A stretch of 63,898 nucleotides of DNA, the filler included, from Folioceros fuciformis (Eukaryota), in NCBI GenBank assembly GCA_049999805.1. It is 8 parts of 8 records of this genome, joined end to end, with 100 filler letters (N's around TTAATTAATTAA, not from the genome) between each part and the next. Parts side by side here need not be neighbours in the genome. Positions count along the whole stretch, not along the records: positions 48,729 to 61,217 come from JBNGIO010003477.1; 7 more parts are not named here. The stretch is one strand, 5' to 3'. The notes below the pieces were generated by a model. The model had not been told where the DNA came from. It did not search any database and saw only the letters and a program-made list of their open reading frames with translations. This document shows positions 11,138-63,898 of this stretch, piece by piece (positions within the stretch are counted from its first letter, which is position 1; each line of letters opens with the position of its first letter). A program made the position numbers and the translations under genes.

Positions 11138-11237
11138 NNNNNNNNNNNNNNNNNNNNNNNNNNNNNNNNNNNNNNNNNNNNTTAATTAATTAANNNNNNN
11201 NNNNNNNNNNNNNNNNNNNNNNNNNNNNNNNNNNNNN
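11138..11237. other. Artificial contig-joining linker (N44-TTAATTAATTAA-N44). Identical blocks occur at 22400-22499, 32811-32910, 36232-36331, 40588-40687, 48629-48728 and 61218-61317
   Basis: An identical palindromic 12-mer with stop codons in all six frames is centred in each 100-nt N block. Genes are cut abruptly at these points. Confidence 0.95.
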
Positions 11238-22319: not shown

Positions 22320-22499
22320 TTGGTTGTGGAACTCAAGTTGTGGAGCGAGATGGTCATAGGGTACCGGGCCAGCGGGTGCCCAGCCAGGGGCGCTAGCGCN
22401 NNNNNNNNNNNNNNNNNNNNNNNNNNNNNNNNNNNNNNNNNNNTTAATTAATTAANNNNNNNNNNNNNNNNNNNNNNNNNNNNNNNNNNNNNNNNNNNN

Positions 22500-32500: not shown

Positions 32501-32602
32501 CCGTCCCCGCCCAGGAGCGATCCACTTCCCGCAGCTGCGGAATCCAGGACACAAAATCCAGCATTCCCCCAGCGGAGGCGGGTGCGTCCGAGAGCGCGCC
32601 AT
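26599..32602 (-). CDS. SET-domain histone-lysine methyltransferase (SUV39/SUVR-like pre-SET, SET and post-SET) with an extended PHD (zf-HC5HC2H-like) finger and a long disordered N-terminus; start uncertain (ATG at 31882 or upstream)
   Basis: ePHD-like motifs CDLC..VHRMCAIWSAEV..KCAHCQKFGATLGCRVGRCRKSFHYPCA. Pre-SET DLSEGQEVVPIPCTNDVD and ECNLRCKC..CKNRVLQNG. SET RGWGVRT, FVVEYVGE, NVARFVNH and ELCYDY. Post-SET CRCGASNCRKVL. Many short GT-AG introns. Confidence 0.85.
30120..30500 (-). repeat. 129-bp (43-aa) coding tandem repeat, ~3 copies plus degenerate copies
   Basis: Repeated peptide VERAPNTRSHMQDRTSNVKRARRDRNLDVDLDGSSRAPNSVRC. Confidence 0.85.
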
Positions 32603-33969
32603 CCAATACAGCAGGCAATTTGCACGCCCGGCGATACATGAGCCACGGCTGGTCGCTCCTCATGAAGGCGCAGAAGCTGTCAGTGAGGCGGCGCTTGAAT
32701 TGGCGGAAACCGACATCGTCTTGGTGCTGGTGGTGGCACGAAGAGTCCGCGGCGGCCTCCTCCTCCTCCTGCACTGGCCGCCGCCCCATTTCCTCACAAT
32801 TCCCAAGACCNNNNNNNNNNNNNNNNNNNNNNNNNNNNNNNNNNNNNNNNNNNNTTAATTAATTAANNNNNNNNNNNNNNNNNNNNNNNNNNNNNNNNNN
32901 NNNNNNNNNNGCCTGGAGTTGGGCTGGGCTGGACAGGGCCTGGAGTTGGGCTGGGCTTGGGGCTGGGCTTAATCCCTGACCTCACACCGCGTGTCGTTAG
33001 CAGTGCAAGACGCGGGGTTTAACTTGTCACCTGTGCCTCTCCGAGGGGAGGCATATGCCCGCAGCACTTAATTTCGTGTCTAGCAAGCACAGACATCCGG
33101 GCAGAAAGATGGCGCGAGGCCCAGGCCCAAGCCCAGCTCCAGCCGAGCTAAGCCCGAAAGCCCGGTAACAAGCGGACAAATGCTTGCCATGAAAACCCGG
33201 CTGCCATTACTCCCACCGCGGGCCCCAAAGCCCCCCTTTGAAACCAAGCTCCTGGCGTGGCCACCCCACCCCGTTTCCCAACACCCGCGCCCGCTCTGCG
33301 CAACACGGGCTTTCACACAAATAAGACTATGTACAGTGTAAAAGAAATCCGTCACCGAGGATTCTTCCCCAGCCTCCGCCACAGCTCCCGCTCCCGCTCC
33401 CGCCCCGTAGAAACACTCTCTCGCACACTTGGGACAAGGTCTCGCACTCCGACTCGTACATGGACAGACACACCACGCACAGGGGAGCTGTGACTTCTCA
33501 GTCAGAAAATATAATTGCCGAGTACTTATGAAATAGCCACATATACAAAGTGATCGCGTCACACACACTATGCTGCCTTCTCTACAAGCGACAGGAGTGG
33601 AAAGAGGTGGCAGTAGCTGGGCTGAGAGGTATCCATCCCCCAGGCAAGCATTCCTACCCTCTTAGTCTACAAAACTTAACAGCATGAGTGATGAAACTCA
33701 ACTCAACTCAAAACTGGCTGGCTGGCTGGCTGCCCGACTGCAGGTTGCAAGCAGCTAAAGAGTCACAAGAGTGAGGGCACAGGGCACATCAGGGTTGCAT
33801 CAAAATGTTGGGGGGCGATTGCAGCTGCTCAGAAGAGACAACTTCTGAGCAGAGAAGCAGCCAATGTCATACTAACAAATCGTGCGTTTGGTAAAAATGT
33901 ACCAATCTTAACATGAAAGAAGGGGCAAAAAATTTAGGCGGGTGGCTCAGGCATCAACTGCCAGATCTC

Positions 33970-34334: not shown

Positions 34335-35794
34335 TCAAGCTCGGCTGCACAGCGGCAGGGTAGGCCCATTGACCCAACCATACAGCAGAGGAGTAGGCTT
34401 GTACTCGAACTCCGCACTGTCAGCAGCGGCGGCACCCACGGGAGCAACAACTCCCGCTCCACTCGCAACCCCTCCTCCAGGGACACCCGAAGCCTGCTTG
34501 TACTCATACACCAAGTTGGCCTTGGTGAAGGGCATGAGGCGGTGCTGGGGGCCGTGGGTCGAAACCGGCAGCATGCCCTGCTTTAAGTCGTAGGACGCCA
34601 CCAGGGGATGCTGGTCTCTGGTGGTTGCCACCTGCAGCACGGATCCCACATGCAGCCCCGATCCGGCGCTGCGCAGAGACGAGGTGTTGTAGAGAGTGGA
34701 GCCGCCATTGTGGAGAGTGGATCCATTGTACAGCCCGGATCCGTTGTCCTCAAATCCGGATGGAGAGCCGGAAGCGGAACCCGAGCCAGAGCCGGAGCCG
34801 GTCCCAGGCTCTTCCACGCTGTTGGATTCGTCGTTGCAGGAGGGCGGCAGATTGAGGTCGAGGAAGGGCATGGAGCGGCTGAGCGGCGGCTTCACGTCCT
34901 GCGGGGATCCCACCTCCGCATCCACAATAACAGAGGAAGAGGAATCACAATCGGAGTGGCAGGCCCTGAGCTGCTCCATGCTGGGATGCGTGAACACCTT
35001 GCCGGTAGGCATCCAGGGACGGCCGACCACCTCCTTCCGGTCCCCAGGCAGAGCGGACGGTAGCGCCGCCGTCATCCCCTTCTTGGTCGTTTTGGGTCTC
35101 TTGTCCAGGTGCACGTGCGCCGTCACTTCCTCCAGGATAGAGTTCCCGGCGCGCTGCTTGGACATTGCGCCGCTCACTACATCCAGCGGGCTGCGGTACG
35201 AAGACCGATTCACGCTTCCGCTCTTGTGCGGCTCGTCAGCGGAGCTGAAGTCGTTGACACTGATGTTGAGATCAATTTGAGAGCGCCAAGAATCGGTCTG
35301 GCCCGGGCCAGGTCCCGCTGCAGCTGCCGCTCCGGGCGCGGTCCCGGCTCCAGGAGCTCCCGGCGCGTTGAGGCCGGCAAGGGCGGGCGCGGCTCCAGGC
35401 CCGGCCCCGGCCCCGGCCGAGCGTAACAGGTTCTTGGGACTGCTCCAGGATTCCACCGTGGAGCTCTGGCTGGTGCTCTGGTCATCGCAAGGTGCGGAGA
35501 AATTGGTCTTGGCCTTGGCTCCCCGCAGCGAGCGCGCGGCGGTGTCGTAGGCTCTGGCCGCCTCCTCCGCGGTATCGAACGTCCCAAGCCACACTCTCGT
35601 TTTCTTCCAGGGGNNNNNNNNNNNNNNNNNNNNNNNNNNNNNNNNNNNNNNNNNNNNNNNNNNNNNNNNNNNNNNNNNNNNNNNNNNNNNNNNNNNNNNN
35701 NNNNNNNNNNNNNCACTCCACGGAAATGAGTCCCTTGCTCTCCACCAGCCGCCTTGGCTCCCGCCCCCTGCTGGTGCTCCTCTCTCTGAGCCAT
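34335..35794 (-). CDS. AP2/ERF transcription factor, group VIII (ERF3/ERF4-like EAR repressor), intronless; the AP2 domain is partly hidden by the N gap at 35614-35713
   Basis: HFRGV[gap][38 protein letters not shown], then [25 protein letters not shown] and the EAR motif FLDLNLPP. Confidence 0.9.
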
Positions 35795-38700
35795 GCCACA
35801 CACGAGAGCGGCTCTGTTCGCTTCCTCCACGGGCGATCACTCGCTCTTCCCGAGTCCCTCAACCTCGCACACCGCACTCACTCACTGCACTCCGCTCACT
35901 CTACACCGCTCCACTCTACTCCACTCACCGCGACACAGCACAGCGCAGCGCAGATGAAGAAGAAGAAGCTTGACAGAAGGGAAACGAAGAAGCAGAACGA
36001 ACACCCGCCGCCTCCAAGAAACAAGCTCAGAGCTCGGGTCCGGGAGCCGGAAACAATGGAAGGAAGCAAGAGCAGGCAGCAGGATGATAGGCAGGGGTTG
36101 CAAGGAGGGACAGTGGCGACTAAGCGGCAGCGATGGCACAGGAAGAGGGGGCTAGATGGCTGCGCAAGAGGCAGCAGCGGCAGCGGCAGTGGTGGTCACA
36201 TAAATTGCGAGAGCAGCGCAATCGGATGCAGNNNNNNNNNNNNNNNNNNNNNNNNNNNNNNNNNNNNNNNNNNNNTTAATTAATTAANNNNNNNNNNNNN
36301 NNNNNNNNNNNNNNNNNNNNNNNNNNNNNNNAAGCCGGGGCTGACCCTTGGCCTTTGCCAGAACAGCGCCGATGCTGTGCGCGTAAATGCGGGGAAGCGG
36401 GCGCAATAATACCCATAAAAGAAGATGCCGGTTACCTTGAAAGGAGAGGAAGGAAGGGAAGTGGAAGTGGAAGAGGAAGTGCCTGCAGGATGCACAGCAA
36501 CAGGGAAGGGAACAGAACAGCAACACGTCGGGGAAGGCGGAGTGGGCTTGCGCTTTCTTCCTTGTTGTTGTTGCCGGAGTCTCGGGGGGGATTCACGTTG
36601 GAGCACGTCCCGTCGGCCAGGCCACACCCCCGCACCCGTTCTCGCCTCACCCCTCCCGCGTTGTCTGCTCCGCTGGGAATCGGATCCCGGAACTGGGGCA
36701 TGCCATGGCGTGGCGCCTTTGACTGTGTCGTCTACTGCGCTGGAGGAACTATTTGACCGGGGCATCCAAGTGGAGTCGGCAGGGCCAGAACATGCTGGTG
36801 GCGTCGCGGCACGTCGGCCNNNNNNNNNNNNNNNNNNNNNNNNNNNNNNNNNNNNNNNNNNNNNNNNNNNNNNNNNNNNNNNNNNNNNNNNNNNNNNNNN
36901 NNNNNNNNNNNNNNNNNNNGCTCAAGAGGCGGGCCAGGGCAAGGCCAAGGCCAAGGCCAAAGGGGCCCAGGCCCAGGCTATGCACGGTGCTTATACATGG
37001 GAACATGCTGCCTTTACGCTTATGGCTATCGCTGTGGCTTGGCTTGGCCTGCTGTAAGCTGTTGCTGTTCTCATCGGCCCCGGGTACCGTGCTACTTTAC
37101 GCAAGATGGAGATCGTATTTCATGCCTTGCTGGTAGCCGTACTACTACCCAGGAGGAGGGAGCTGTATGCAGTAGAGACTGCAACCAGGCAGCGAGATAC
37201 TGCTCCTGCTCCTGCTGCACGTTTGTCGAGATCAGCATGACATCGCCATGGCTTTGCTTATGTACAACATAAAAAGGTCACTAGCATACATGTAAAGCGT
37301 CTTGCAGGCAGGCAGTGCAGGGTAGGGGGAGCGGATCAACTAGTAGCTTGATCTGCGCATGTGACATGGATTGCGCCAACTGCCACATGACACCGCCAGC
37401 AAGTGCGCTAAAAGGCCAGTCAACACCAACTAACCTGCCTGCTTTGCTTTCTGCATTCGCGAACACATGCGCCCGGGCATCCCTTCTGACAGGAATCGAG
37501 GTCTAATATGACTTGTAAAGCTGGCCCGGCCCCGTGGGACACCCTGGCTGCGGACTCTCAAGTCGCAACAGAGCACACACTCTTGCAGGACCATGCTTGC
37601 ATTGCCTTTCAGTTACCTGCATTGCACATGAATCTGCTCTGCTATTCTTGGCTCGCCGTGATCACAAAACCTTGTTTTAGGTCGCTGCAGACGGCATGAA
37701 TCCAAGCTTACTACCCCATTGTGTCAGTCCGCTTCCCAGCTGTCAGGGGAAGAAAGAATCTCAATTTGACTGCATGAGGAATTATGCTCTCGGCCCCAAG
37801 CCAAGCATTCGGGAGGTGGGATTTCCAGGAGGCCCTGGAAATCACCCGACCCAAGAGGAAAGCTCTCTGGGAGTGGAATGCATGCTACCGGCTAAGGCAG
37901 CATCTGAACATGTTGGATCTCAAGAGAGCATTTCATACATTGGTAGGCAGAATCCGGAGCTGAACACGAGCTCTGTTTTACACTTCCCAGCGTACGCTCA
38001 GCGCAGCCCGAATCTCTCGGTTCTGAACCGTGGATGATGATGACTTCGCCATGCTGTCATCCGATTTGCGAGGTTTTTCCTTTGCCTTACTGTGCAAAGG
38101 CCGCGTAGTCCATGCAGCCGGCGGCCCCTAAGCTGAGACAACACAGCTGATAAAATGTTCCTATTAACCTTGCCTGTTTGCACACCAAGGTGCAGAGTTC
38201 ACCAACTTCGCAAAACCAGACGGAAGACAGGCATCAGTGCCTTTGCACGACTTGTTCTTAAGACTGTTGTTGTCTTTCGCTGCGTATCGCGGCATGCGCC
38301 TCGGCCTCGGCATGATCCGTTAACTGGTGCTCAAGTAAAGTACAGTATGTGGCACCTTGGATCCTAACATAGGGTCCAACTACATGCTTCCAGCAGGCTG
38401 GAATTTCCTGTGCCTCAGTCCGGGCCCGGCATGTCCACGACGACGAACCATCAAACCTCCATTCCAGTGTTTGCAAGCGCTCGAAGTAGAAGTGTAGTGG
38501 TGTGGTTGGTGATCTCCTTCCTGAATCATGCCTTCCAGGGGTAAGTCCCTGCAGGAACGTACTGATCTCTCTTTTCAGGTTGGTTAGGACTAGACCACCG
38601 GTGGTCGGAGGAGGCGCAGGTGCCTTCGTCGCGCCGCGACCGAACTGAATGAAAGGCGTGCTGGAAACCAAACCACCTCCGCTCCGAGCAGTCCTGTCAA

Positions 38701-40587: not shown

Positions 40588-41813
40588 NNNNNNNNNNNNN
40601 NNNNNNNNNNNNNNNNNNNNNNNNNNNNNNNTTAATTAATTAANNNNNNNNNNNNNNNNNNNNNNNNNNNNNNNNNNNNNNNNNNNNGTTTACAAGCCAC
40701 CTCCTTACCTGTATTACACTCCTCCCGGGTACTGAAGCTCCCCACGTTGACGAATGTCGAAAACAAATTGAAGGAACTTCAGACAATCGATTGGCGGCAG
40801 GGAGGTATTGGCCTCGGGCACGATCGCCTCACACTTCATGGCTTCAGACGCGAGGTGGCACTGACGCGACCGTGTGTTGTGGAACTTCCCTGCAGATGTG
40901 ACACAGAAAAGATGGACAACACCAACAGAACACAACAGGCTCACAAATCATGGCCTTGCATGAGGATCAGGCACCAAGGCCATCCCTGGACAATAAAGCT
41001 CTTGTGCGGATGCACGCATCCTACCCAGTCTTATAAATTGATGTATGTATTTTGGACTTGGAAGAGCTCTCTGAGTACTAATTACTAGTAGCCTTGAGGA
41101 GACGGAGTGGCGTTTTCAGGAGCAGCAGCCAGATAGCTAGCGATCCGGATAGCTGTTAGTACACTACTCTTTGGAACTCGTTCGTCTTGTCGTGGCCAAG
41201 AGTGGAATCCAACATCATCCTTGCTCCTTGGTGGCAAGATTGCAATAAAGGCTTTTCGCGAGATCGTTTTGTGAGGCGCCACACAAGCCCATGAACCAAT
41301 TCGACAAAGACAGCTTGACAGCATTTAGAGTAGATAACACATACAGAGTGAGTTTACAGCTCTCCACAGAGTGCTCTGAAATAGATCTGCTAAAACAAAC
41401 CACTCGTGACCACTCTACCAGCTCATCACACACGACGCTGCTGCGTACCATATTGTGTAAGAGTTGCCTCCCATAAGACTCCGTGCCTGCATTATTTGGT
41501 AGTAGCTTAGTATCTGTACAGGAGCACAATGTGAAGAAGGCGTTGGCTCCTTTGCCACGCGTATGGGTGATACGAAAATCCTGGAACTTATTGGACTCCA
41601 CGCACATAGCGGACATGTTGTTCTTGATGTATTATTCGACATCCCTCGTTAGCCCCCGCTGACACCTCCGCTCCAGCTGTTTGAGGTCCCGCATGCGAAG
41701 GAAAAAACAATTGCATGCTTCACAGAGGAACTGGATGAAGTTGAAGAATGCCAAGCGAAACTTCTGACAAATTTAAATCTGTGAACAGCTCTTAGAGGTA
41801 CCTGAACGGAGAC

Positions 41814-47649: not shown

Positions 47650-48628
47650 TGGTGTGCCTACAGGTACAGGCCTAAAGATTATCGATTGACCACAGCAATT
47701 GGTGCTCAGGATTGCCTACGCATTCTCCACAAACTAAGAGGTGGTCACGATTGAAAGCTGGAGAAAGCATCAAACATGGGTGTCAACCTAGCTTCACTGT
47801 GAAAAGGTTGTTCTTGTGGCCATCTGTTGCTTAGATTTTGCTTTTTGAGAGTAGACATATCGATGTCAAGGGTCAAGTGTGTCACGGCCCTAGTTATGTA
47901 GGCATAGTAAGAGATATAAGAGCGCCACATTTGTCAACCGAGAAGAGAGCTTGGGTGAGGCATTGTCTATATTGCAATGTATCAGTTGATGAGATTTTGC
48001 GTCGTCATCAGCAGGCTGTTATAGCTAAGTGTTGTCCGTCTACTTTATAAAATCATGAAGTTCCCTATGTGAAGGTAAGAGATGACTTCCTTTCACGGGA
48101 CGATGTCTATAATATAGCCAGGGAGGTGGACAAGATATAATGTAGGTATCATGACGATGATAACCGTAGTGTGGGAATGTGGATGAATTTACATGCAGGG
48201 TATGTGTTCCATACATCTAGTGAAGGAGAATCTTTTTGCCTCGGCTTACAAACTTCTTTCATGTTGGAAACTTGTGTCCGACATGGGCACAATAGTTTGC
48301 TTGCAATGGACTCCACTTTTGGGGTAAACAGGTACAAGTATCAATTATTTACTGTTATGGTATTTGACCAACACCAGAATGGGATTCCTGTTGCCTGGGC
48401 TCTCACACAGGAGGCAACTACAAGAGCATTAGTTCCATGGCTTACGGCAATTCGCATAAGAGTTCTACAAGCAGCTCCAGATTGGTTGCCTAGTGTCTTC
48501 TTGGTTGATGATTGTGCTACAGAAATAGGTGCTTTACGAGAAGTTTGGTCACGTGATGTGCCAGTCTATTTATGTTTGTGGCACGTTCGCCGTGCTTGGC
48601 TGTGCAATCTGCTCAAGAAGGTGAAGAA
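47650..48628 (+). mobile_element. Mutator-like (MULE) transposase, partly degenerate and truncated at the contig end
   Basis: MULE DDE core with the CxxH motif: LAMDSTFGVNRYKYQLFTVMVFDQHQNGIPVAWAL..FLVDDCATEIGAL..YLCLWHVRRAW. In-frame stop codons occur upstream. Confidence 0.85.
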
Positions 48629-48728
48629 NNNNNNNNNNNNNNNNNNNNNNNNNNNNNNNNNNNNNNNNNNNNTTAATTAATTAANNNNNNNNNNNNNNNN
48701 NNNNNNNNNNNNNNNNNNNNNNNNNNNN

Positions 48729-49906
<1,178 letters not shown>

Positions 49907-51074
49907 CTAAAATCGAGCCCTGGAACTAATAAGCAGAGGCTGGCCGGCTCCCGAGGGCCTGGCAGCCATGGCCGTGGTGCACGCCACAAGCAACCCTGCT
50001 TCGCCCGATTGCAGCCAGCCAGCGAATTTGTGGACACAGACAGCGCACGCCCGCGCACATGAGATGCACTGCAGGCCTGTTACGAGAGCGCCAGAAAGAC
50101 GGTATAGTGCCGGATGCACGCCCCCGCCAGCCCTTACCCTCCAGCCCCTTCCCTCCAGCCTCTGTGAGTTCCCTGGAGCACGAACTCCAGGTCCAGGTCC
50201 AGCCCGACCACCAGCTGCTCCGAGCCCCTAGTAAAAGCCTGTTGAGGAGCTTGGAGAGTCTACTGGATCCGATGACTGTGCACCTGGAGCCAGGCCAGCA
50301 ATAGCAGCAAAAGCAAAGGAAAAAAAAATAACAAAATTAGGAAAAAAGAGGGAGAGCCGATGCTGAGTTGGGGTTGCGGGCATCGCGGGTCAGGGCACCA
50401 ACCCACCCCAAGACAGGGAAACTTTGAAAGAGGTTTACGAAAAGAAAGCAGCCAGTGTAAGCCTGGACTGAACGTCCTCACGGGGGCATTTGGTAGTGGA
50501 GCCCCTTTTAGGCCAGGCGCCCTCTCCAGCGAGAAGACTGCTCAGTCTGTTCTTGTGTGGTGAGCAACTACCTCCATTTCTGAACATCGCTGTGCTGTGC
50601 ACACATGCACATTGATGTCATTTCCAAGATGCTGCAACACCTCATTCGGAAAAATCGAGGGACGTGGAGGCACACGTTTTACTGAGTGTACAGGGATGTG
50701 ACTGGAGCCTTGGCTGGCAGTCGGTACCGATGGTTCCTCTTTGCCCCGGGCAAGAAGGGGAATGAGCTTTTACAGGACACATACCAGGTAGGTCTTGTTA
50801 CAATATCTGCCTCGCTAGCATTTCAGCCAACAAGGCTCACCGTAGAGGCCGCCTCAGGATCAAATATGCATGGGATGCTGGGTCCCTAGACTCTTCCTTC
50901 CTAAAAGCCTGGATTCCTGTTGTCTTTTGATGCTGGCAGCCCTCGGAGGTCTTCTAGCCATTTTGGCCAACTAGATCAGCATCACGGGTACAAGCCATGG
51001 CCCGAAAACATGATAAATAGGAACCCTCTGGCTCTGGTGTATACCTTCTCCCCCTCCCTGCATGAAAAATCTTG

Positions 51075-54041
51075 TCAATGACGATCCCCACACGAGCAGG
51101 ACCCATCCACAAATCGATGCACACGATGAGCGTCTCTCACAACGATGTCTCGTTTCTCAAGGCGTGACATGATCTTGGTGCTGCGGTGGCAGTCATCGCA
51201 CATGCGCAGATTTTTGGTCACCAGCAAAGTGGCACCATCCGGTGTGTGCAACAGGCCATAGGCCAGTGCCAGCTTCTCCGCGTGCCCACACAAGGCATCC
51301 TCCTTCTCCTGCTCGGACACCGCCTTGAGAACCAAGTGAGTTTGCGGCACATGCCCTCCTTCCGCCTTCAACCTGTAGGACAAGCTCCTCAACTTGGGAG
51401 AGATATCAGCCCTCTCCTCTCCCACGGTGAACTCGTGCACCTCATTCCTCACTTCGATACATGCCTTGGCAGGCTTCTTCACTGCACCTGCTGACTTTCT
51501 CAAGCTCTCTATCCTGTCCACTTCTACCCACCTGCCTACATCCGCATAAATGCTCCCCAACAGCACGTAGGGGCTGGCATCCTCAGGTGCAAACCTCACG
51601 AGATGGTCGAAGCAGCGTCGCCCACGCTCAACATCTCCGTAGCTTTTGCAAGCACTAAGGAGAGCTGTCCAGCCCACAACATCGTTCACGAATGACGACG
51701 TTCTCAACAAGTGTTCGGCCTCGTCCAGTTGGCCCGACCGTCCGAGCAGATCCACCATGCAACTCAGGGGATAGTCGGAGGGCACAATCCCATAGTCCTC
51801 CATCATCCTGAAATAGCGGCGGCCCTCATGCACCAGGCCTGCATGACTGCACGCCACCAAGAGACAAATAAAGGTGGTCTCATCCGGCTCAACGCCTTCC
51901 TGCAACATGTGCTGAAAGCAGCGGATGGCCATGTCCACATCGCTGTGCTCGGCGTAGCCGTTAAGGAGAGCATTCCATGTCACCACATTTCTTGCGGGCA
52001 AGCTGTCGAAGAGGTTACGGGCATCCTCCATGCTCCCGCATTTGGCATACATGTTGAGCAGGCTGTTGCCGATGAACGCGTGAGCATGCAGACCCCTATC
52101 CCGAATCTCACGGTGGAGCTGCCTCCCCTGCTGCAGGGCTCCTACACCGGCGCACGCTTGGAGAAGGCCCAAAAAGGTGACATGGTTGGGCGGGGTGGAA
52201 CGGTTGCCCTCCTGTCGCTGCATGCTGGCATACAGTGTCAGGGCTTCCTGGCCCAGTCCCTGCTGAGCATACCCTGAGATCATGGCATTCCAAGTCACCA
52301 CATCTCTGGCGGGCAAGGTGTCAAACACCTTGCGGGCGCTCGCCAGGCTCCCGCACTTGGCATACATGGTCACCAAACTGTTGCCGANNNNNNNNNNCGC
52401 CAGGCTCCCGCACTTGGCATACATGGTCACCAAACTGTTGCCGATGGGTGCATCACCTTCCAAGCCTCGGTCACGAACTAGGCTGTGAAGCTGCTTCCCC
52501 TGCTGCAAGCCCAGGGCTCCCCCCACACTCGCACACGCCTGCAGAAGGCACACAAACGTGACACGATCTGCTACTGCTCCTGCACCTCCTGCTGCCCCCG
52601 GGGTGATGCCTCCACCCTCCTCCTGTAGCAGCATGGCCCTGTAACAAGCAAGGGCTTGCTGGCCCATGCCCTGCTGGGAGTAGCCTGCGATGAGGGCTGT
52701 CCAGGTAACCACATCCTTGTGACTCAGTGCATCGAATACGCTTCTAGCGTCCTCCAAGCTGCCGCACTTGGCATACATGTTCACCAGACTGCTGCCCACA
52801 AACGCATCCATTTGGAACCCGCAATGCCTGATGTGTGCATGAAGCTGCTTCCCCTTTTCCAATGCCACGGCCCCCACACCTGCACAAGCCTGCAGAAGGC
52901 ACACGAAGGTGGCAGCATTGGGTGCCTGCTGCTCCTGCATCATGGCAGTGTGGAGACGCAGCGCTTCCTCGCCCATGCCCTGCTCCACATATCCTGCCAT
53001 GAGAGAGGTCCAGGTCACCACGTTCTTTCGCTCCCGATCCAGCCCGTCGAACACTCTTCGAGCGTCCTGCAAGCTGCCACACTTGGCGTACATACTCACC
53101 AGGCAGCTACAAACGAACACATCAGGCTCCAGACCCGATGCCAGGACGTGGGCGTGCACCAGCTGGCCCGTCCTGAGGTCCGCTCCCTTGGTGCACGCCT
53201 GGAGGGCTGCCGCAAACACATGCCCATCCGGCTCCGCCCTGGACTCCCTGTGCATCTCATGATAGAGCTGCAAGGCCTCCTTATCCCGCCCCTGCTTCAC
53301 ATGCGCCTGGATGACGGCAGACCAGGTGAAGGCATCCGGCTGGGGAAGCGCTGCAAACACATCCATGGCCTCTTGCAGCCTGGCGTGGGCCACATACATG
53401 CGCATGATGTGGTTGCACAGGAAGGTGTCCGATTCGTATCCACATCTCACCGCCAGCGCATGTACACAGCGACCCAGGACCAGATCCCTGTCCGCCACGC
53501 ATCGTCTGAGGGCAGAATAGAGACGGGAGTAGCAAGAAGAGTGCGGGTGCGGGAGCACAAGCCCCCAGAGCGCCCCCACGGGCTCACGCTCACTCAGCTG
53601 ACCCTGCTCACATACCCTGCCCACGACCCTTTGCCTTTGGCTTTCCCATACCCATTCCCCTTGGATGTTGCATCCTTCGTCCGGGACGCTCCAGGTGCTA
53701 GCTGGTTGTGCCTGTGGTACCTGTAGTTCTGGTGTGTGCCAGTGGTACGGTTTAGGGTAGTGGTCCAGCCCCAGGAGCTCCTCATCCTGCCCCTGAAATT
53801 TTTGCAAAGGGACAACCTCTCTACTTCTTCTTCCCGTTCTTGGAGCTGGAGCTAGGGCTGATGGCCTGGTTGCTGCCAGGCTGCTGCCGCGCCTTGACCA
53901 CCACCTGAACCTGCACCTGTACAAAGAGAGGAGGAGGAGGCTGCTCCTCTTACTCGCTCCCTTGTCGACGCACAGCGCAGCAGCAACAGCAGCAGCAGCA
54001 GCCATGCCATTGCTCACATATTTCGTCGCCACCACGATCAT
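51075..54041 (-). CDS. PLS-class pentatricopeptide-repeat RNA-editing factor with E1/E2 and a DYW:KP (DRH-terminal) deaminase-like domain, intronless
   Basis: Transit-peptide-like N-terminus and ~17 L/S/P motifs ending P2-L2-S2. KKPAKACIEV replaces the PG box, followed by HAEKLALAYGL, KNLRMCDDCH and terminal CSCGDRH. Confidence 0.95.
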   Translation of the reverse strand: MIVVATKYVSNGMAAAAAVAAALCVDKGASKRSSLLLLSLYRCRFRWWSRRGSSLAATRPSALAPAPRTGRRSREVVPLQKFQGQDEELLGLDHYPKPYHWHTPELQVPQAQPASTWSVPDEGCNIQGEWVWESQRQRVVGRVCEQGQLSEREPVGALWGLVLPHPHSSCYSRLYSALRRCVADRDLVLGRCVHALAVRCGYESDTFLCNHIMRMYVAHARLQEAMDVFAALPQPDAFTWSAVIQAHVKQGRDKEALQLYHEMHRESRAEPDGHVFAAALQACTKGADLRTGQLVHAHVLASGLEPDVFVCSCLVSMYAKCGSLQDARRVFDGLDRERKNVVTWTSLMAGYVEQGMGEEALRLHTAMMQEQQAPNAATFVCLLQACAGVGAVALEKGKQLHAHIRHCGFQMDAFVGSSLVNMYAKCGSLEDARSVFDALSHKDVVTWTALIAGYSQQGMGQQALACYRAMLLQEEGGGITPGAAGGAGAVADRVTFVCLLQACASVGGALGLQQGKQLHSLVRDRGLEGDAPIGNSLVTMYAKCGSLAXXXXGNSLVTMYAKCGSLASARKVFDTLPARDVVTWNAMISGYAQQGLGQEALTLYASMQRQEGNRSTPPNHVTFLGLLQACAGVGALQQGRQLHREIRDRGLHAHAFIGNSLLNMYAKCGSMEDARNLFDSLPARNVVTWNALLNGYAEHSDVDMAIRCFQHMLQEGVEPDETTFICLLVACSHAGLVHEGRRYFRMMEDYGIVPSDYPLSCMVDLLGRSGQLDEAEHLLRTSSFVNDVVGWTALLSACKSYGDVERGRRCFDHLVRFAPEDASPYVLLGSIYADVGRWVEVDRIESLRKSAGAVKKPAKACIEVRNEVHEFTVGEERADISPKLRSLSYRLKAEGGHVPQTHLVLKAVSEQEKEDALCGHAEKLALAYGLLHTPDGATLLVTKNLRMCDDCHRSTKIMSRLEKRDIVVRDAHRVHRFVDGSCSCGDRH

Positions 54042-54532: not shown

Positions 54533-54707
54533 ACAAGGAACAACTATCATTTGAAGTGCCTCTATTTCCGACATGTCAAGGAACAACTATCATTTGAACT
54601 GCCTCTATTTCTGACATGTCAAGGAACAACTATCATTTGAACTACCTCTATTTCCGACATGTCAAGGAACAACTATCATTTGAACTGCCTCTATTTCCGA
54701 CATGTCA
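54533..54707. repeat. 43-bp tandem repeat x4
   Basis: CAAGGAACAACTATCATTTGAACTGCCTCTATTTCCGACATGT units start at 54534, 54577, 54620 and 54663. Confidence 0.9.
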
Positions 54708-58660: not shown

Positions 58661-59015
58661 ATAGCTATTTCGTAAAGCCATTGTACCACAGCGCTCACAA
58701 TTCGCAGTTGGGAGCCTAAGCACAGAACTGCAAATTGGCAATGGAACTGGGAGACGTATTGTTGTTGCAGGGCGAGTGATGAAGCACCAAAAGCATAGTG
58801 GCAGAGGCAAGACATGTCTAGCTGCCAGCATAAAAATCAGTGCAACAGACGCAGCGACCAGATAGCAAGCTGAAGCTTCATCCGCGGCAACATGTTGTCA
58901 GAGCTAAAGAAAGCATCTCCAGACATGAAGAACCCTAACGTGAAAGGGAAGGGGAAGGAGACACACTGAGATGATCTACCAATCCCATTTGTTCTAGATG
59001 AAAGGTATGCTTAGG

Positions 59016-61217
59016 TGTGGAGTGGTTTCCTGCACCCAAGAACCACCAAAGGGCCACACTTTCCCTTATTGTCGTTGCAGCCTTATGATTCGCTCCCAAG
59101 GGAGTGAACTAGCGTCAAGGAACGCCTACGACTGCTGTGAACTCCACATGCTGAACAGACCCCTGGGAAATGATGGGTTCTCTTTTTTTTTTGGATCTGT
59201 GAGTGAGTGTTGTAGAGGAAAGGTTAGAAGATTCGGTTAGATTAGAGTTAGATTAGAGTTAGGGTTAGGATTAGGTCGGACTTAGGTTTAGGGTTTTGAC
59301 GAGTGGAGGGTTCTGTCTAAGGTGTGCTGACCTGGTTAGGTAGTGACAGGGGTTCCGGGCCAAGGGAGTATAAGAGGTCAGGCCTGTTATTGAGGGGGGA
59401 GGTTTTTTGGTGAGAGCTCCCTTGACCTTGTGTGCAGGCTGCTGGGTTAGAGGGTTAATTCAGTGTGCAGATGCACCTCGGCCTTGATTCCCCATGCCCC
59501 TAGGGGAACATGGCGGCTCCCAAAATTGCTGAGATTTGGGTGGCCAGATCCACAAGGGCTGACATTTCTTGCATGCTAGTTGGGTGGCTGGGGTACCTTG
59601 ACGTCCCTTAGGGGTTTCCAAGGCGACGGATTGCAGGGCTGTGAGCTAAGAAGGCTATGCAGCCTAGGTCTGCACATCCTTGCCTTAAGGACTGCAAGTG
59701 AGGGGCTGTTGTGTTCCAAAATCTAGGAGTGAACCGTGAGGGTGAAGGGATGAAGGGTTGAAAAGCTGAAGTGCTGGAGTAGAGATTTGAAGTGCTGGAG
59801 TGTGGGGCTGGTGCGCTGAGGTGAGGAGCTTAGGTGCTAAAGTTCTCAATCAGCTGCTGAGGTGGCTAGCATTTAGGGCTGAGAGTGGAGGCCAAGACTA
59901 GGGCTGGGACCTCCTCTCAGTTGCTGAGACGGCTGATACTTGGAGCTGTAAGTGAGAGCTAAAGATGATGTTGGAGTTCTCATTCAGCTGGAGCTGTGGT
60001 TGGCGTTCAAGACAAGGCTAAGGATTCTGATCTTTTTTGCTGTAGTGAGGCTAGGGCTAGGAGCCGGCTGATAGATAGGGTTAGATTAGGGTAGTGTGGG
60101 AAGATTGTAGAAAACCTTGACACTAGTTCACTCCCTTGGGAGCGAATCATAGTACTGCAACGATAATAAGGGGATGTGTGGCCCTTTAGTGGTTCTTGGG
60201 TGCAAGAAATCACTCCACATTTTGGCGCCGTTGCCGGGGAGTGACATTGCTGTCAAGGTTTGCAGAGGACTGACCTAGATAGGGGACTGTATAAGGGAAT
60301 GTGGCAGGGTTGATGGATGCCCCGCATAGGAGCTGAAGATTTCAACTCTAGCTTTGAAGGGGGAGCTCAAGCTCAAGCAAGGAGGCAGCAGCAAGTATTG
60401 GAGCGTGAGCAAAGAGCAGTGGAGAGGGAGCTAAGGAGGGCACAGCCAGGGCATACACTAGCGAGGAGGAGGAGAGGGGCAAGCAACCAGCAGATCTTGG
60501 GGGAATCAATCACGTTGGAACAAGATCCTCAACTTTCAGCTATTGGGGGGAAGCCTAATCCGGGGCAACCTAATCCAAGTCAGATCAAGACAGTACAGGA
60601 TCAAGACCTCCTTGGTCTTCATCCTGGACTAGTGCAGGTGATTAGGAGTGCAGGGGCTGAAGGATTCAACAACATCAGCCCAACTCCAGTTGTTGGAGCT
60701 GCTAGATCCGCAGCTGCAGTGGTGAGTGCAGGCACCATGGCGGCCCCAGCTGTTGCAATGTCCACCAAGCAGCTGTACCCCTTGTATGGGGAGAAGAAGG
60801 GGTATAAGGACCCGAATGAATTTGTGGAGAGGTTTGAACAACTCACCCTTGCTAACCAGGAATCAGCGGATGCCCAGCGCATCCAACTGTTCTATGGTGT
60901 ACTGCGTGGAGGGCCTGCCAAGTGGTACAAGAGGGAGTACCTCAAGGCCGGCACATTTCCAGCAACTTTTGATGTGTTGAAGAGGGCCTTTTGTGAGTGG
61001 TTCAGGGGGATAGACGTAGAGAGCTACGTGCTGTCCAAGATGGAGGCCTTGAGGAGGAGGAGGAAGGAGACCTTGCAGCCCAATGTGGAGAGGTTCCACA
61101 ACCTGCGGGATTGCTATGGACCTCATTCAGACTTACAAGCCATTAGGTGGTTTGCTGGAGGCTTAGTGTGAACCTCCAAAGTTTGGGGTAGTAGTTTGTT
61201 TTGGTTGAAAAAGGGTT
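59016..61217 (+). mobile_element. Ty3/gypsy (Athila-like) LTR retrotransposon 5' end: LTR 59016-60219, tRNA-Asp PBS 60223-60240 and gag ORF 60317-61171; cut by the contig end
   Basis: TG...CA ends, a perfect PBS TGGCGCCGTTGCCGGGGA, and retrotransposon gag-like FVERFEQLT..LFYGVLRGGPAKWY..TFDVLKRAFCEWF..ETLQPNVERF. Confidence 0.88.
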
Positions 61218-62008
61218 NNNNNNNNNNNNNNNNNNNNNNNNNNNNNNNNNNNNNNNNNNNNTTAATTAATTAANNNNNNNNNNNNNNNNNNNNNNNNNNN
61301 NNNNNNNNNNNNNNNNNGGAGGTAAATATCATCATTTTCAAGTCTTAATTGTGAAAACTTTTTTTTCTTAAAGTAGGTTTTGGGTTTCAACCTTGCAAAA
61401 CTTTTTTATTATTGCAATAATTTTTTTTAGATGATTGAAAATGGGACTCTTCCACCCCAAAACACTAGAGTCACCATAATTTCCAATTTTGGACGTGAAG
61501 GATGATAATTTTGTAGATATTGAAAACCAATGGCTTCAAAATGTGAAAATCCTATCAAAATGAAAGACGAATCAAGTGTGCCAAGTCAATGTAAGAAATC
61601 GATTTAAATTTAAAGTTATGCCACCGTTTGATTAGGTCAATNNNNNNNNNNNNNNNNNNNNNNNNNNNNNNNNNNNNNNNNNNNNNNNNNNNNNNNNNNN
61701 NNNNNNNNNNNNNNNNNNNNNNNNNNNNNNNNNNNNNNNNNTCAATAGGCTTAGTTTTGCTGGAACAGTTTGGCTAGGTCATAATTCCTCTTGAAGTGCG
61801 CCAATAAATCCGCGCACAATGAGCAATACATTCCTCTTGAAGCACCTCAATAGACTGACGCACAAGAGGAACATCCAGTGGGGAACATCCCGCAACGGGG
61901 AAAACTGTCAGCAAACGGGTGTTCAGAGCTGGTCTCTTCCATTCTAGCAGCCATTTATCGAAGTGTGCGCTGGCACGGGCTACCGAGTCGAGAATGAAGC
62001 GAAGGAAG

Positions 62009-62719
62009 CTAGAGATGGAAGAGGCGCTTCTGGGCATCGAGGAGGTACTGGGTCTGCTTGGGCCTGATTCCGAATGCCTTTCCCAAAACATCCGAAGGAA
62101 TGTCTGAACTCAGGAGAGCGCTAACAAAGTTCTGGGCTGGAGAATACTGCGTGTTTAGAGCCGAGATGACCCAAGACAAACCGTCCGCCACATTCTTCAT
62201 GAAAATCAAAGATCCACGAGGGAACACAAACACCTCACCCTTTTTAAGAATGGTCTTGTACAACTTGTGGGTCTGAGACGGTACGAACGCCACCTCCAGC
62301 TCTCCCTCCACCAAGTAGATGATCTCGGTGGCACGAGCATGGTGATGCGGTGGGTTGAGCCCCCCCTTCCCGAAGTCGATCCGTTGCAATGCAATGCCCA
62401 GAGTGTTGAGCCCCGGGAAGACATTCACGAAGCCGCTCGTGATGACGCAGCCCAGAGGGTGCTTGCTGGTGTTACCCGGCGTCACCAGGCCTGAGTATTT
62501 GAAGTCCTCAGCCGTGGTCTCTTCCACCGACTTGCAGGTGAACCCATTGATGTGCGGGTTAGGGTTCGTGATATCCTTCGCCACGCAGAAATCCTGAAGA
62601 GGGTCGGGGTCTGACGCAGCTGTGAAACTGGGTGCCCAAACAACCAAGAAGAGCACGGCAGACGACATCACGATCATCTGCATTCTTGCGTCCAGCAGGG
62701 TGGTGTTGCAGTGAGCCAT
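62009..62719 (-). CDS. GLP: Germin-like protein (cupin), secreted, intronless
   Basis: Signal peptide followed by DPDPLQDFCVA, INGFTCK, FPGLNTLGIAL.RIDF..GGLNPPHHHARATE and KGEVFVFPRG. Confidence 0.92.
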   Translation of the reverse strand: MAHCNTTLLDARMQMIVMSSAVLFLVVWAPSFTAASDPDPLQDFCVAKDITNPNPHINGFTCKSVEETTAEDFKYSGLVTPGNTSKHPLGCVITSGFVNVFPGLNTLGIALQRIDFGKGGLNPPHHHARATEIIYLVEGELEVAFVPSQTHKLYKTILKKGEVFVFPRGSLIFMKNVADGLSWVISALNTQYSPAQNFVSALLSSDIPSDVLGKAFGIRPKQTQYLLDAQKRLFHL

Positions 62720-63898
62720 TGCTGGGAATTGTCGGGTCCTCGAGACTCAGATCCTTCCAGATGACGAACAGGATGTCACAGACTGCAATATGACTGGAAG
62801 GCTAGGCGTTACAACGGCCGAGAAGGCTTTATACCATCTCCCGTAGGGCCGGATCGCACCACTGGGCCAAATGTTTGCGTGCACTGCCGATAATCCGGGA
62901 GTTGTTAGGTCCAGATTGCTTGCCGCAAAATTTCGTGGAGTGCAAATCGTAGGAAACTAGCGGGCACATGAAGGAGCGCGAACCCTGTGCCTCCAGACAC
63001 TGTCAAGCCAACATCTGGCAGACAAGAATTTTTGGGAAAGGATGCAGTCATATAGTGCAGTGGAAACTTCACAGTCAACTTCAGTGGCATCTCTCGGGAC
63101 TATTGTCTACAAGATGGCGTCAGCCTGATTGGATCAATGGCAGGCTAGCAACACATCTTCTCTCCGCTTGAATATTGCGATCCATCTTGGAGGATGCAAC
63201 TCAGCCTGCTCCTCCCGGTAACATTCATGGCTGCCGATCCAGTCACCATGTCTTGTCAGGCTGCAGCTCCGGGAACTGTACTAGTCACACATGTTGCATT
63301 TAATGCACTAGAAGGTCGGTGCTCGATGCAGTACATTTGATAGTCTCCATGTCCCTATCCACGGTCGACCTGATCCTGTCCATTTTTCACTCCACGATGG
63401 ATAGAGTGACCTCGTAGCCCTTGACTCAGTGGTGGATTTCCAACGTTCCACCCCGTCTCTACTTATCTTAAGTATCACATTCTAATCTACGACAAGCGAT
63501 CATGAAGCCTGGTATGTTTACTCGACACTAGACCACAGCCTTCCTCTTCAGACCAAAGTAAGTTTGGTATGGAGAATCAAAGTGCTCAATGGAGGACTTG
63601 ATTTATAACATACATGCTTTCTCCACTCAATTCAGCACATTGCTCACAATACTCTTTGCAGTCATCGTATGCGGCCTTCGAAATTGTGGAGCCGCAAGCT
63701 GCAGCATCTATGTGATCAGATCCTGCACAGCTGGTTTGTTGAGAAGCGGAGATCCACGTGCACTGGCAGCTACCGGTCCGAGACATTGGATGCTATTCAC
63801 TGCACACTGCCAGGCCATGCATCGGTTTGAACGTCGGCGGATGTGTTTCACAGTAATCCAACGGAAGTGAGGATAAAATAATGTTCCCGAATCATGCC

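Follow-up and report, generated by a model that had tools for sequence, protein, structure and literature searches.

The window analysed here, 63,898 nt (filler included) from the Folioceros fuciformis assembly GCA_049999805.1 joined from eight records, contains an intact plant nuclear gene for a PLS-class PPR protein that ends in a DYW:KP domain of the DRH subgroup. The gene is transcribed, and on balance its product is probably an organelle-targeted editing factor that would convert specific U to C. The role of a native U-to-C editor, which had been put forward in the initial annotation, is plausible and reasonable, and we infer from the features described below that the protein is targeted to an organelle, which sequence it would recognize and in which direction it would edit. 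As a member of a large known class, the gene is clear-cut but ordinary.

Gene structure and transcription

The gene lies on the minus strand, and its reading frame runs from a first ATG at 54041, with a second in-frame ATG at 54003-54005, to a stop codon at 51075-51077. After removal of the artefact caused by an assembly gap (see below), the length of the ORF is probably 969 aa. Its main parts are as follows.

51075..54041, minus strand: gene for a PPR-E1-E2-DYW:KP protein, a complete intronless ORF of 988 aa as printed
53802..54041, minus strand: N-terminal 80 residues, presequence-like in composition (14 R+K, 2 D+E, 15 A, 13 S+T)
53532..53645, minus strand: possible degenerate N-terminal P-type motif, residues 133-170, from hand segmentation
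51681..53531, minus strand: PLS-type PPR tract of 17 motifs, residues 171-787, from Pfam and numeric segmentation
52388..52397, no strand: 10-N assembly gap inside motif S1-d, read from the sequence
51579..51680, minus strand: E1 motif, residues 788-821, 34 aa, with T at position 5 and D as last residue
51477..51578, minus strand: E2 motif, residues 822-855, 34 aa, from segmentation and Pfam
51078..51476, minus strand: DYW:KP deaminase-like domain, residues 856-988, 133 aa, from PF14432, AF2 and Foldseek

The extension ahead of the PPR tract is long (about 170 residues), and the composition of its first 80 residues suggests an organellar targeting peptide. Over the possible P-type motif the homologues P0002 and P0194 align collinearly. 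The tract itself is recognized by Pfam PPR_2 (5.3e-77) and PPR (4e-67) and is laid out as five L1-S1-P1 style units, the last of which ends in P2, followed by L2 and S2; motif P1-c carries a Gly/Ala-rich insertion of 14 residues (residues about 474-491). Next come E1 and E2 (Pfam E_motif, E 8.4e-13, residues 801-862), so that the protein has the PLS-class PPR tract, E1 and E2 that belong to the definition of the DYW:KP class. The motifs are not a chance match, because the Pfam E-values are 6.7e-36 for DYW_deaminase and 8.4e-13 for E_motif, and reach 5e-77 for the PPR families.

Sequencing run X1 yielded a contig record 1 (4054 nt) that matches 49585-52298, and records 2 and 3 that match 52398-52779 and 52772-53971, all with 0 differences. 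Record 1 also spans the downstream GTPase gene, with two GT..AG introns removed on the minus strand (joints 48805/48915 and 49023/49112), and these joints are seen in X1 and X4 and are absent from the DNA runs X2 and X3. No RNA run is on record, and the RNA label of X1 and X4 is a guess; X1 was taken to be derived from RNA since two GT..AG introns that the DNA runs keep are spliced out in its contig. Since the gene matches the contigs of this spliced-joint run without a single difference, the PPR gene is transcribed.

Between 54150 and 58736 X1 lacks cover altogether, against about 12x in X2 and about 8x in X3. This gap in cover hints only weakly at a source of X1 other than genomic DNA and is uninformative on the 5' end of the transcript.

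The DYW:KP domain and its class

The C-terminal domain of 133 aa is recognized by Pfam DYW_deaminase (PF14432, E 6.7e-36, residues 896-986). Its diagnostic motifs map as follows.

51450..51476, minus strand: KP box KPAKACIEV replacing the PG box, residues 856-864
51267..51284, minus strand: HAEKLA, residues 920-925, with zinc ligand H65, class-specific A66 and catalytic E67
51213..51215, minus strand: codon of Lys88, residue 943, located by motif position
51186..51200, minus strand: CDDCH, residues 948-952, with zinc ligands C93 and C96, plus H97
51078..51086, minus strand: C-terminal DRH triplet replacing DYW, residues 986-988

M92 is also present, and the HxE(x)nCxxC deaminase signature is intact (H65, E67, C93, C96). 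The domain numbering (133 aa; H65, A66, E67, K88, M92, C93, C96) agrees with that in PMC9478123 and PMC11845758, which, like the other papers named in this text, are cited from the parts available. The initial annotation, made on the span 51075-51480, had taken in the stop codon and the entire domain on the minus strand, and each motif that it described (KPAKACIEV, HAEKLA, CDDCH and the DRH end) is found at its mapped residues in the 988-aa ORF. It had also reported the loss of the SHP segment after FTVGE; FTVGEE occupies residues 871-876, and in the HMMER alignment to 9kfx_A, a canonical synthetic PPR-DYW chain, a 4-residue gap falls precisely at the SHPQ of that chain, so that the xHP segment is indeed absent from the 133-aa domain. 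By this loss KP domains measure 132-133 aa, against 136 aa in the canonical form.

The AF2 model of the domain has a mean pLDDT of 95.6, and its best Foldseek matches in the PDB are PPR-DYW or DYW-domain structures, namely 9kfx_A (E 1.1e-18, TMq 0.88, 192 columns), OTP86 DYW (7o4f/7o4e) and DYW1 (7w86), with E-values from 1.1e-18 to 4.4e-09; the predicted fold is of the DYW type. A sequence search of the PDB gave E-values of 5.3e-56 to 8.3e-32 for DYW structures, and the distinct DYW sequences among its matches numbered only three (from a synthetic PPR-DYW, Arabidopsis OTP86 and Arabidopsis DYW1), with no chain named as a KP type; the 9kfx and OTP86 alignments both read HSE.

For placement of the domain, a tree was built from 86 DYW domains out of 89 sequences (P0080, P0082 and P0089 were dropped as they had no parsable C-terminus), and the reference sets for KP and PG are our own, drawn by motif and tree from the matches of the query, and are not published reference sequences. 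The query falls on the 42-row KP-like side of the tree (support 92), inside a 33-row HAE/non-W clade (SH-aLRT 96) that consists of 31 HAE and 2 HVE rows, and the neighbours closest to it have DRH ends. A subclade of its own is made up of 4 GRP rows (support 98), and the 33-row clade does not include the fern rows. On the other side of the tree all rows (44/44) read HSE, and most have a W end. Against profiles from these sets defined here, the query scored 234.4 bits on KP, which was built without it, versus 153.8 bits on PG, a difference of +80.6; in a leave-one-out comparison KP members gave KP-minus-PG differences of +33.7 to +81.0, and those of PG members were between -85.6 and -12.9. The initial annotation had named HMM or phylogenetic placement as the check on its proposal, and both the profile difference and the position of the query apart from the 44 canonical-side rows bear out its class assignment.

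Single columns give the same picture. At the class-discriminating columns of the sets defined here, the query has the KP consensus at 8/8 and the PG consensus at 0/8. The A3 and A5 of its KP box are set against G and S in the PG set, and the variable residue of HAE/HSE is A in 94% of the KP set versus S in 100% of the PG set. Residues conserved at 95% or more in both classes are present in the query at 21 of 21 positions, including K88, H97, H120, C127 and C129. K88 and the zinc ligands do not discriminate between the classes, because they are conserved in PG domains too (PMC11845758 and our own sets). The PG box, the SHP segment, HSE and a W-ending triplet, which define canonical DYW:PG domains, are all lacking in the query. 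From the sequence evidence, its assignment to the DRH subgroup of the DYW:KP class is fully supported by motifs, domain length, tree and profile scores, as the initial annotation had it.

With its nearest neighbour P0002 the query shares 86% identity in the domain but only 42-55% in the aligned PPR tract. The closest homologues, Logan proteins, have DRH or GRP ends, and the identity of named fern proteins is about 50%. An exhaustive search with the DYW domain in 1.84 billion representatives clustered at 50% gave 2488 matches at E<=1e-3, 32 of them at E<=1e-30, and among the best 150 of the 2488 a motif script counted 14 HAE, 13 HCE, 117 HSE and 6 other or unparsed. Given the 50% clustering, this search adds little beyond the size of the family.

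Comparison with known proteins

The DYW:KP class is found in hornworts, lycophytes and ferns (PMC9478123, PMC11332814, PMC13386178), and the initial annotation, which had described a KPAxA/HAE class of these lineages with native factors largely uncharacterized, is in line with the available parts of the same papers. DRH and GRP ends mark hornwort subgroups (PMC9478123), and for the definition of the DRH subgroup that paper cites Gerke et al. 2020 and Gutmann et al. 2020. With such ends on the query and on its closest homologues, the gene is most likely that of a hornwort. The query shares with the hornwort DRH proteins the PLS tract, E1, E2 and the 133-aa domain, the KPAxA box, the missing xHP, HAE, K88, M92, CxxCH and the DRH end, with no defining difference; its own traits are the P1-c insertion and the N-terminal extension. 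The synthetic KP2 and KP3 (hornwort GRP type) and KP6 (fern type) have a domain of the same class, with 132-133 aa, Lys88 and the zinc centre (PMC9478123, PMC11332814, PMC11845758). They are set apart by their description, as consensus designs on a designer PLS tract, whereas the query is a native protein and, unlike KP2 and KP3, ends in DRH and not in GRP. Canonical DYW:PG proteins (9kfx, OTP86 7o4e/7o4f and DYW1 7w86), which deaminate C to U, have the same fold, zinc ligands, K88 equivalent and E1/E2 scaffolding. In contrast to them the query has KPAKA for the PG box, HAE for HSE, a 4-residue deletion at the SHPQ of 9kfx, L84-L85-V86 for I-R-I, V119 for F and DRH for DYW.

The PPR tract and its predicted target

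A search for orthologues of the PPR tract was carried out with residues 1-560 and gave 1579 matches in 8000 scored candidates, the best 120 of which were listed; no close orthologue was found among these 120. The best BLASTP identities among the matches listed were 53% (P0194) and 47-48% (P0111, P0009 and P0012), so that the tract has no close counterpart there; bit scores for the tract are inflated by its repeats. The RNA bound by the tract was predicted from the position-5 and last residues of each PPR motif. In the PPR code, TN and SN specify A, TD and SD specify G, ND specifies U, and NN and NS specify C over U. Some of these rules are given in the available part of the review PMC12733224. 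The predicted RNA for positions -20 to -4 would read 5'-nUGnAAnGGnUYnYUnG-3'.

Integrity of the gene model

The 10-N gap, which the initial annotation had passed over, is flanked by an identical 47-nt direct duplicate (52341-52387 and 52398-52444), and gap and duplicate together add 19 in-frame codons (XXXX and a repeated 15 aa). In all likelihood these codons are artefactual: at this place P0002 and P0194 show one motif only, and BLASTP gaps out the 19 residues. The DYW:KP domain is unaffected because the gap lies upstream of it. The gap does raise the possibility that the gene model is a chimera of the assembly, with halves from different PPR genes, or a decaying, non-functional copy in a large retroposing family, which we regard as very improbable. 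It sits within the YAKCGS region of an S1 motif, which is the PPR sequence repeated most, and there the summed contig depth is thousands-fold because paralogues share words; no bridge over 52299-52397 was found among the contig pieces listed (6704 pieces and 185 joints lie outside the listing), so that the motifs upstream of S1-d could in principle belong to a paralogue, and the contig of the gene also carries high-copy repeats and a retrotransposon gag fragment. However, the frame is open through the gap over 988 codons, and deletion of the gap plus one duplicate (57 nt) keeps it; P0194 is collinear over residues 140 to 877, with the 19 residues as an insertion relative to it. Moreover, contig depths in the DNA run X2 are alike on either side of the gap (10.7-13.9), the RNA-derived contigs have 0 differences on both sides, and the DYW:KP domain lies entirely on one side.

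Function

In the mechanism that we favour, the Arg/Ser/Ala-rich presequence would direct the protein to the chloroplast or mitochondrion, where each of the roughly 17 PPR motifs would bind a single base of the RNA ahead of the target, and the DYW:KP domain would convert a specific U to C at the bound site. Lys88 in the active site, beside the zinc centre of H65/E67/C93/C96, may act as the nitrogen donor or as the crosslinking residue, a proposal carried over from the synthetic KP2, KP3 and KP6. In synthetic KP proteins Lys88 is essential to U-to-C activity and to crosslinking, and their U-to-C editing is detected only after the sample has been treated with proteinase K ahead of RNA extraction (PMC11845758), and the residue that differs between HAE and HSE is not decisive for the direction of the reaction (PMC9478123). 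Seven KP consensus designs were tested, and in the available text only KP2, KP3 and KP6 gave U-to-C (PMC9478123), in line with the review PMC12733224, according to which three of the KP domains are active in U-to-C. KP1, designed mainly on DRH proteins, is not among the three in the available part of PMC9478123, and the U-to-C activity described in the parts at hand of PMC9478123, PMC11332814 and PMC11845758 is that of synthetic GRP-type and fern-type consensus domains only.

The protein might be a site-specific editor that, despite its KP-type domain, acts as a C-to-U deaminase or in both directions, which we consider unlikely. In human cells synthetic KP6 carries out both reactions, and in vitro C-to-U; the direction is switched by a single substitution at K88 or at a few distal residues (PMC11845758, PMC11332814), KP1 falls outside the U-to-C-active designs, and the query has a full hydrolytic deaminase centre. 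However, it keeps K88 and the KP consensus at every discriminating column; by the PPR code the KP class as a whole fits U-to-C sites, and it is confined to U-to-C-editing lineages (PMC9478123, PMC13386178), and C-to-U was seen in E. coli for 0/7 designs in the available text of PMC9478123. Slightly less probable, in our judgement, is that the DYW:KP(DRH) domain is not competent alone, and that the protein is an RNA-binding specificity factor in need of a partner or of an amine donor specific to hornworts, or else serves outside editing, in RNA stabilization or processing. That 4/7 consensus designs, the DRH-based KP1 included, were without editing in E. coli (PMC9478123) would be consistent with this, but a failed consensus design is weak evidence on native proteins. 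Synthetic KP enzymes also halt at a lysine-RNA crosslinked intermediate, for which a missing native cofactor or trans factor was proposed by the authors, according to whom native enzymes must differ from the synthetic ones (PMC11332814). On the other hand, the 21 residues conserved across both classes are intact in the query, and the higher identity to P0002 of the domain than of the PPR tract is what would be expected under enzyme constraint on the domain. Direct U-to-C conversion by the protein is the more probable reading.

Among the base conversions of plant organelles, U-to-C RNA editing is understood least. Over 1400 PPR proteins have been reported for hornworts, and DYW:KP genes have been catalogued in 22 hornwort genomes (PMC13386178); since the gene is one of a very large family catalogued genome-wide, the find itself is unsurprising. 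What it offers is a native sequence of the DRH type that is intact and transcribed, has a predicted binding motif and can be used for a native-protein assay, for target assignment and for a first structure of a KP-type domain. There is also a small chance that the DRH subgroup is mechanistically distinct from the GRP and fern-type KP proteins, and that, to complete U-to-C conversion without staying crosslinked, it needs a partner or amine donor specific to hornworts, or gives a different outcome at the site. If this were true, the absence of KP1 from the active designs would reflect biology and not a poor consensus, and a native DRH protein such as this one would be what a search for the missing component should start from.

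Gene structure and domain organization

The PPR gene lies on the contig spanning 48729-61217 and consists of one minus-strand reading frame (51075-54041), with 988 codons as printed. Pfam recognized the repeats (PPR_2, 5.3e-77; PPR, 4e-67), an E motif at residues 801-862 (8.4e-13) and DYW_deaminase (PF14432) at residues 896-986 (E 6.7e-36). The motifs that the initial annotation had read as marks of a DYW:KP domain were all recovered in place, and the missing SHP segment corresponds to a 4-residue gap at SHPQ of 9kfx_A, a canonical synthetic PPR-DYW structure.

Motifs of the C-terminal region in the translated reading frame
51450-51476, minus strand: KPAKACIEV, residues 856-864
minus strand: FTVGEE, residues 871-876
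51267-51284, minus strand: HAEKLA, residues 920-925
51186-51200, minus strand: CDDCH, residues 948-952
51078-51086, minus strand: C-terminal DRH, residues 986-988
51075-51077, minus strand: stop codon

From KPAKA through DRH the domain has 133 aa, and its H65, A66, E67, K88, M92, C93 and C96 occupy the positions given for DYW:KP domains of 132/133 aa (PMC9478123, PMC11845758).

A mis-joined gene model is a rival to be weighed, as the frame holds a 10-N gap (52388-52397) flanked by identical 47-nt copies (52341-52387 and 52398-52444), and none of the listed sequencing-run contigs spans it. Gap and duplicate fall in an S1 motif, inserting XXXX and 15 repeated residues. Since deleting 57 nt (the gap and one copy) preserves the frame, and since only one motif occupies this place in the homologues P0002 and P0194, the gap is best explained by contig ends that overlap but were left unmerged, which would give a true protein of about 969 aa. 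Given that no listed contig bridges the gap, the join is likely correct but short of proven; the gap itself is entirely upstream of the DYW:KP domain.

Class of the DYW domain

A search with the E-DYW region (residues 800-988) returned 88 proteins. The closest 31 (P0002-P0032), all from Logan assemblies, share 53-76% identity with it; all 31 lack the terminal W, 30 have HAE and one HVE, and their ends include DRH, GRP and DRP. Named fern proteins come next (~50% identity), and seed-plant canonical HSE/DYW proteins show ~40%.

Of 89 sequences, 86 supplied DYW domains for a maximum-likelihood tree (P0080, P0082 and P0089, with unparsable C-termini, were left out), in which the query falls within a 33-row clade of 31 HAE and two HVE rows (SH-aLRT 96). 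Inside this clade its own group comprises 13 rows, mostly ending in DRH (support 89), and adjoins a GRP clade of 4 rows (support 98). Across the tree from these, each of the 44 rows has HSE, and most end in W. Against a KP profile built from the 32 other clade members the query scored 234.4 bits, versus 153.8 bits against one made from the 44 PG domains, a difference of +80.6 bits. For tree and profiles alike, the KP and PG reference sets were defined here by motifs and tree rather than taken from publications. In leave-one-out scoring KP members ranged from +33.7 to +81.0 and PG members from -85.6 to -12.9, which places the query at the KP extreme. Moreover, at the eight columns where both classes have at least 75% consensus and the consensus residues differ, the query carries the KP residue in every case (A3, A5, no H of xHP, A66, L84, L85, V86, V119), and it keeps all 21 residues conserved at 95% or more in each of the two classes, the zinc ligands among them. 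The assignment to DYW:KP proposed from the motifs is thus solid. An AlphaFold2 model of E1-E2-DYW (mean pLDDT 95.6) had its best PDB matches in 9kfx_A (E 1.1e-18, TMq 0.88), the OTP86 DYW domain (7o4f/7o4e) and DYW1 (7w86).

The DYW:KP class is mixed at the serine/alanine position. Some relatives on the KP-like side, among P0012, P0033, P0036, P0041 and P0044, have HVE or HCE in place of HAE. P0035, P0038 and also P0042 (box not displayed), which are named proteins from ferns, retain HSE; P0038, shown in the domain alignment, has a KPAKA box. The fern-like group scored nearly equally on both profiles (-4.5 to +15.4 bits).

Transcription and genomic surroundings

Runs X2 and X3 are possible source runs. 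Run X1 comes from the same organism, in another study and year, and its RNA label is a guess; 0.99 of the sampled words were found in it. Its record 1 (4054 nt) matched 49585-52298 with 0 differences and extends into a downstream small-GTPase gene with two introns spliced out (joints 48805/48915 and 49023/49112; GT..AG, minus strand). Both joints are present in X1 and X4 and absent from the DNA runs X2 and X3, and therefore the X1 record 1 contig is RNA-derived. Within it are the final 1224 nt of coding sequence of the PPR gene; records 2 and 3 matched 52398-52779 and 52772-53971, also with 0 differences. The PPR gene is transcribed, and the contigs give neither transcript level nor ends. In X4, which represents another organism, a piece of 704 nt covers 51285-51988 and shows 50 differences (about 93% identity), suggesting that a related species expresses a close homologue.

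The X1 contig is unbroken (49585-52298, minus strand) from the PPR coding region through a 1385-nt spacer to GTPase exon 1. Overlapping UTRs or read-through transcription could lie behind it; a contig cannot prove a single transcript. The GTPase, of the Ras family, may be a ROP/Rac protein, a name we take from a 14-residue motif only.

Seven N44-TTAATTAATTAA-N44 linkers, with stops in all six frames, make the window a chain of separate contigs, so that sequences on either side of a linker do not adjoin in the genome; seven 100-N runs are also present. The MULE/ZSWIM, AP2 and Cupin_1 matches on other contigs all fit a plant nuclear genome.

Other features of the window
48729-49690, minus strand: Ras-family small GTPase gene, same strand as the PPR gene, running off the contig end
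49586-49690, minus strand: GTPase exon 1, Pfam Ras E 1.2e-06
48806-48914 and 49024-49111, minus strand: GTPase introns, GT..AG, backed by spliced contigs
54534-54707: four 43-nt units in tandem (96% matches), some 500 nt upstream of the start codon of the PPR gene
58737-61217: high-copy repeats; in the DNA runs the contig depth, summed, goes into the thousands, versus about 12 in flanks
60317-61171, plus strand: ORF weakly matching Retrotrans_gag (E 4.7e-4, short of the Pfam cut-off)
29381-32659, minus strand: 1092-codon open frame, no Pfam family at E<=0.001 (other contig)
48144-48628, plus strand: MULE transposase / ZSWIM RNaseH-like fragment, E 1.1e-12 (other contig)
34338-35858, minus strand: ORF with partial AP2 domain, E 2.6e-07, below the cut-off (other contig)
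62012-62746, minus strand: germin-like Cupin_1 ORF, E 4.6e-31 (other contig)
11138-11237, 22400-22499, 32811-32910, 36232-36331, 40588-40687, 48629-48728, 61218-61317: linkers

RNA-binding tract and predicted target

Motifs were segmented backwards from the DYW:KP domain using motif lengths.

C-terminal motifs by motif-length segmentation
residues 822-855, minus strand: E2
residues 788-821, minus strand: E1
residues 756-787, minus strand: S2

N-terminal of S2 lie L2, P2, L1-S1 and four earlier L1-S1-P1 triplets, for a total of 17 PPR motifs that start at residue 171; residues 133-170 may form a degenerate P motif. Motif P1-c (52566-52712, minus strand) has 49 aa, with a Gly/Ala-rich insertion of ~14 residues, GGGITPGAAGGAGAVA (residues about 474-491), between helix B and the following motif; across this stretch P0194 is 2 and P0002 4 residues shorter than the query.

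The target was read by the PPR code from positions 5 and last of P and S motifs, L motifs being entered as n, and part of the rules are general background. The predicted RNA would be 5'-nUGnAAnGGnUYnYUnG-3' at positions -20 to -4, in which the bases from motifs upstream of the 10-N gap rest on the unverified join, and E1 (T, D) possibly adds G at -3. Other rules follow PMC12733224. The edited base would lie four nucleotides past the last PLS triplet, as in the KP designs (PMC9478123). The first 80 residues have 14 R+K versus 2 D+E, with Ala and Ser abundant, a typical composition from which we infer an organellar presequence.

Possible function of the PPR protein

According to PMC9478123, DYW classes differ in their PG box, in the active site and in the final triplet, and hornwort DYW:KP proteins form DRH and GRP subgroups. 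Their taxonomic restriction was upheld across 364 genomes, including 22 hornworts (PMC13386178), a group with more than 1400 PPR proteins as cited in PMC10030945. From class membership by itself, the best available reading is that the PPR protein would, on balance, be a native U-to-C editor.

Some evidence counts against this functional inference. Of seven consensus designs reported in PMC9478123, U-to-C conversion in E. coli was seen with KP2 and KP3 (GRP type) and KP6 (fern type), a count of three also given in the review PMC12733224; KP1, built mainly from DRH proteins and the sole published proxy for this subgroup, is outside them. A rival reading is that the protein does C-to-U editing, or both directions: Lys88, which the query has, is reported as essential for U-to-C, its substitution turns the enzyme to C-to-U, and it is conserved in PG domains as well (PMC11845758). 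Another is that editing depends on a partner. The lysine was proposed as nitrogen donor via a crosslinked intermediate, and the same paper stresses that native enzymes need a means of resolving this crosslink that the synthetic ones lack (PMC11332814). Among titles and abstract openings, our literature search found no characterised native U-to-C factor, which does not prove absence.

As a native U-to-C editor or otherwise, the gene adds one member to a well-catalogued class. Its value is practical, as a native DRH-type sequence that is both intact and expressed and has a predicted binding motif open to testing.
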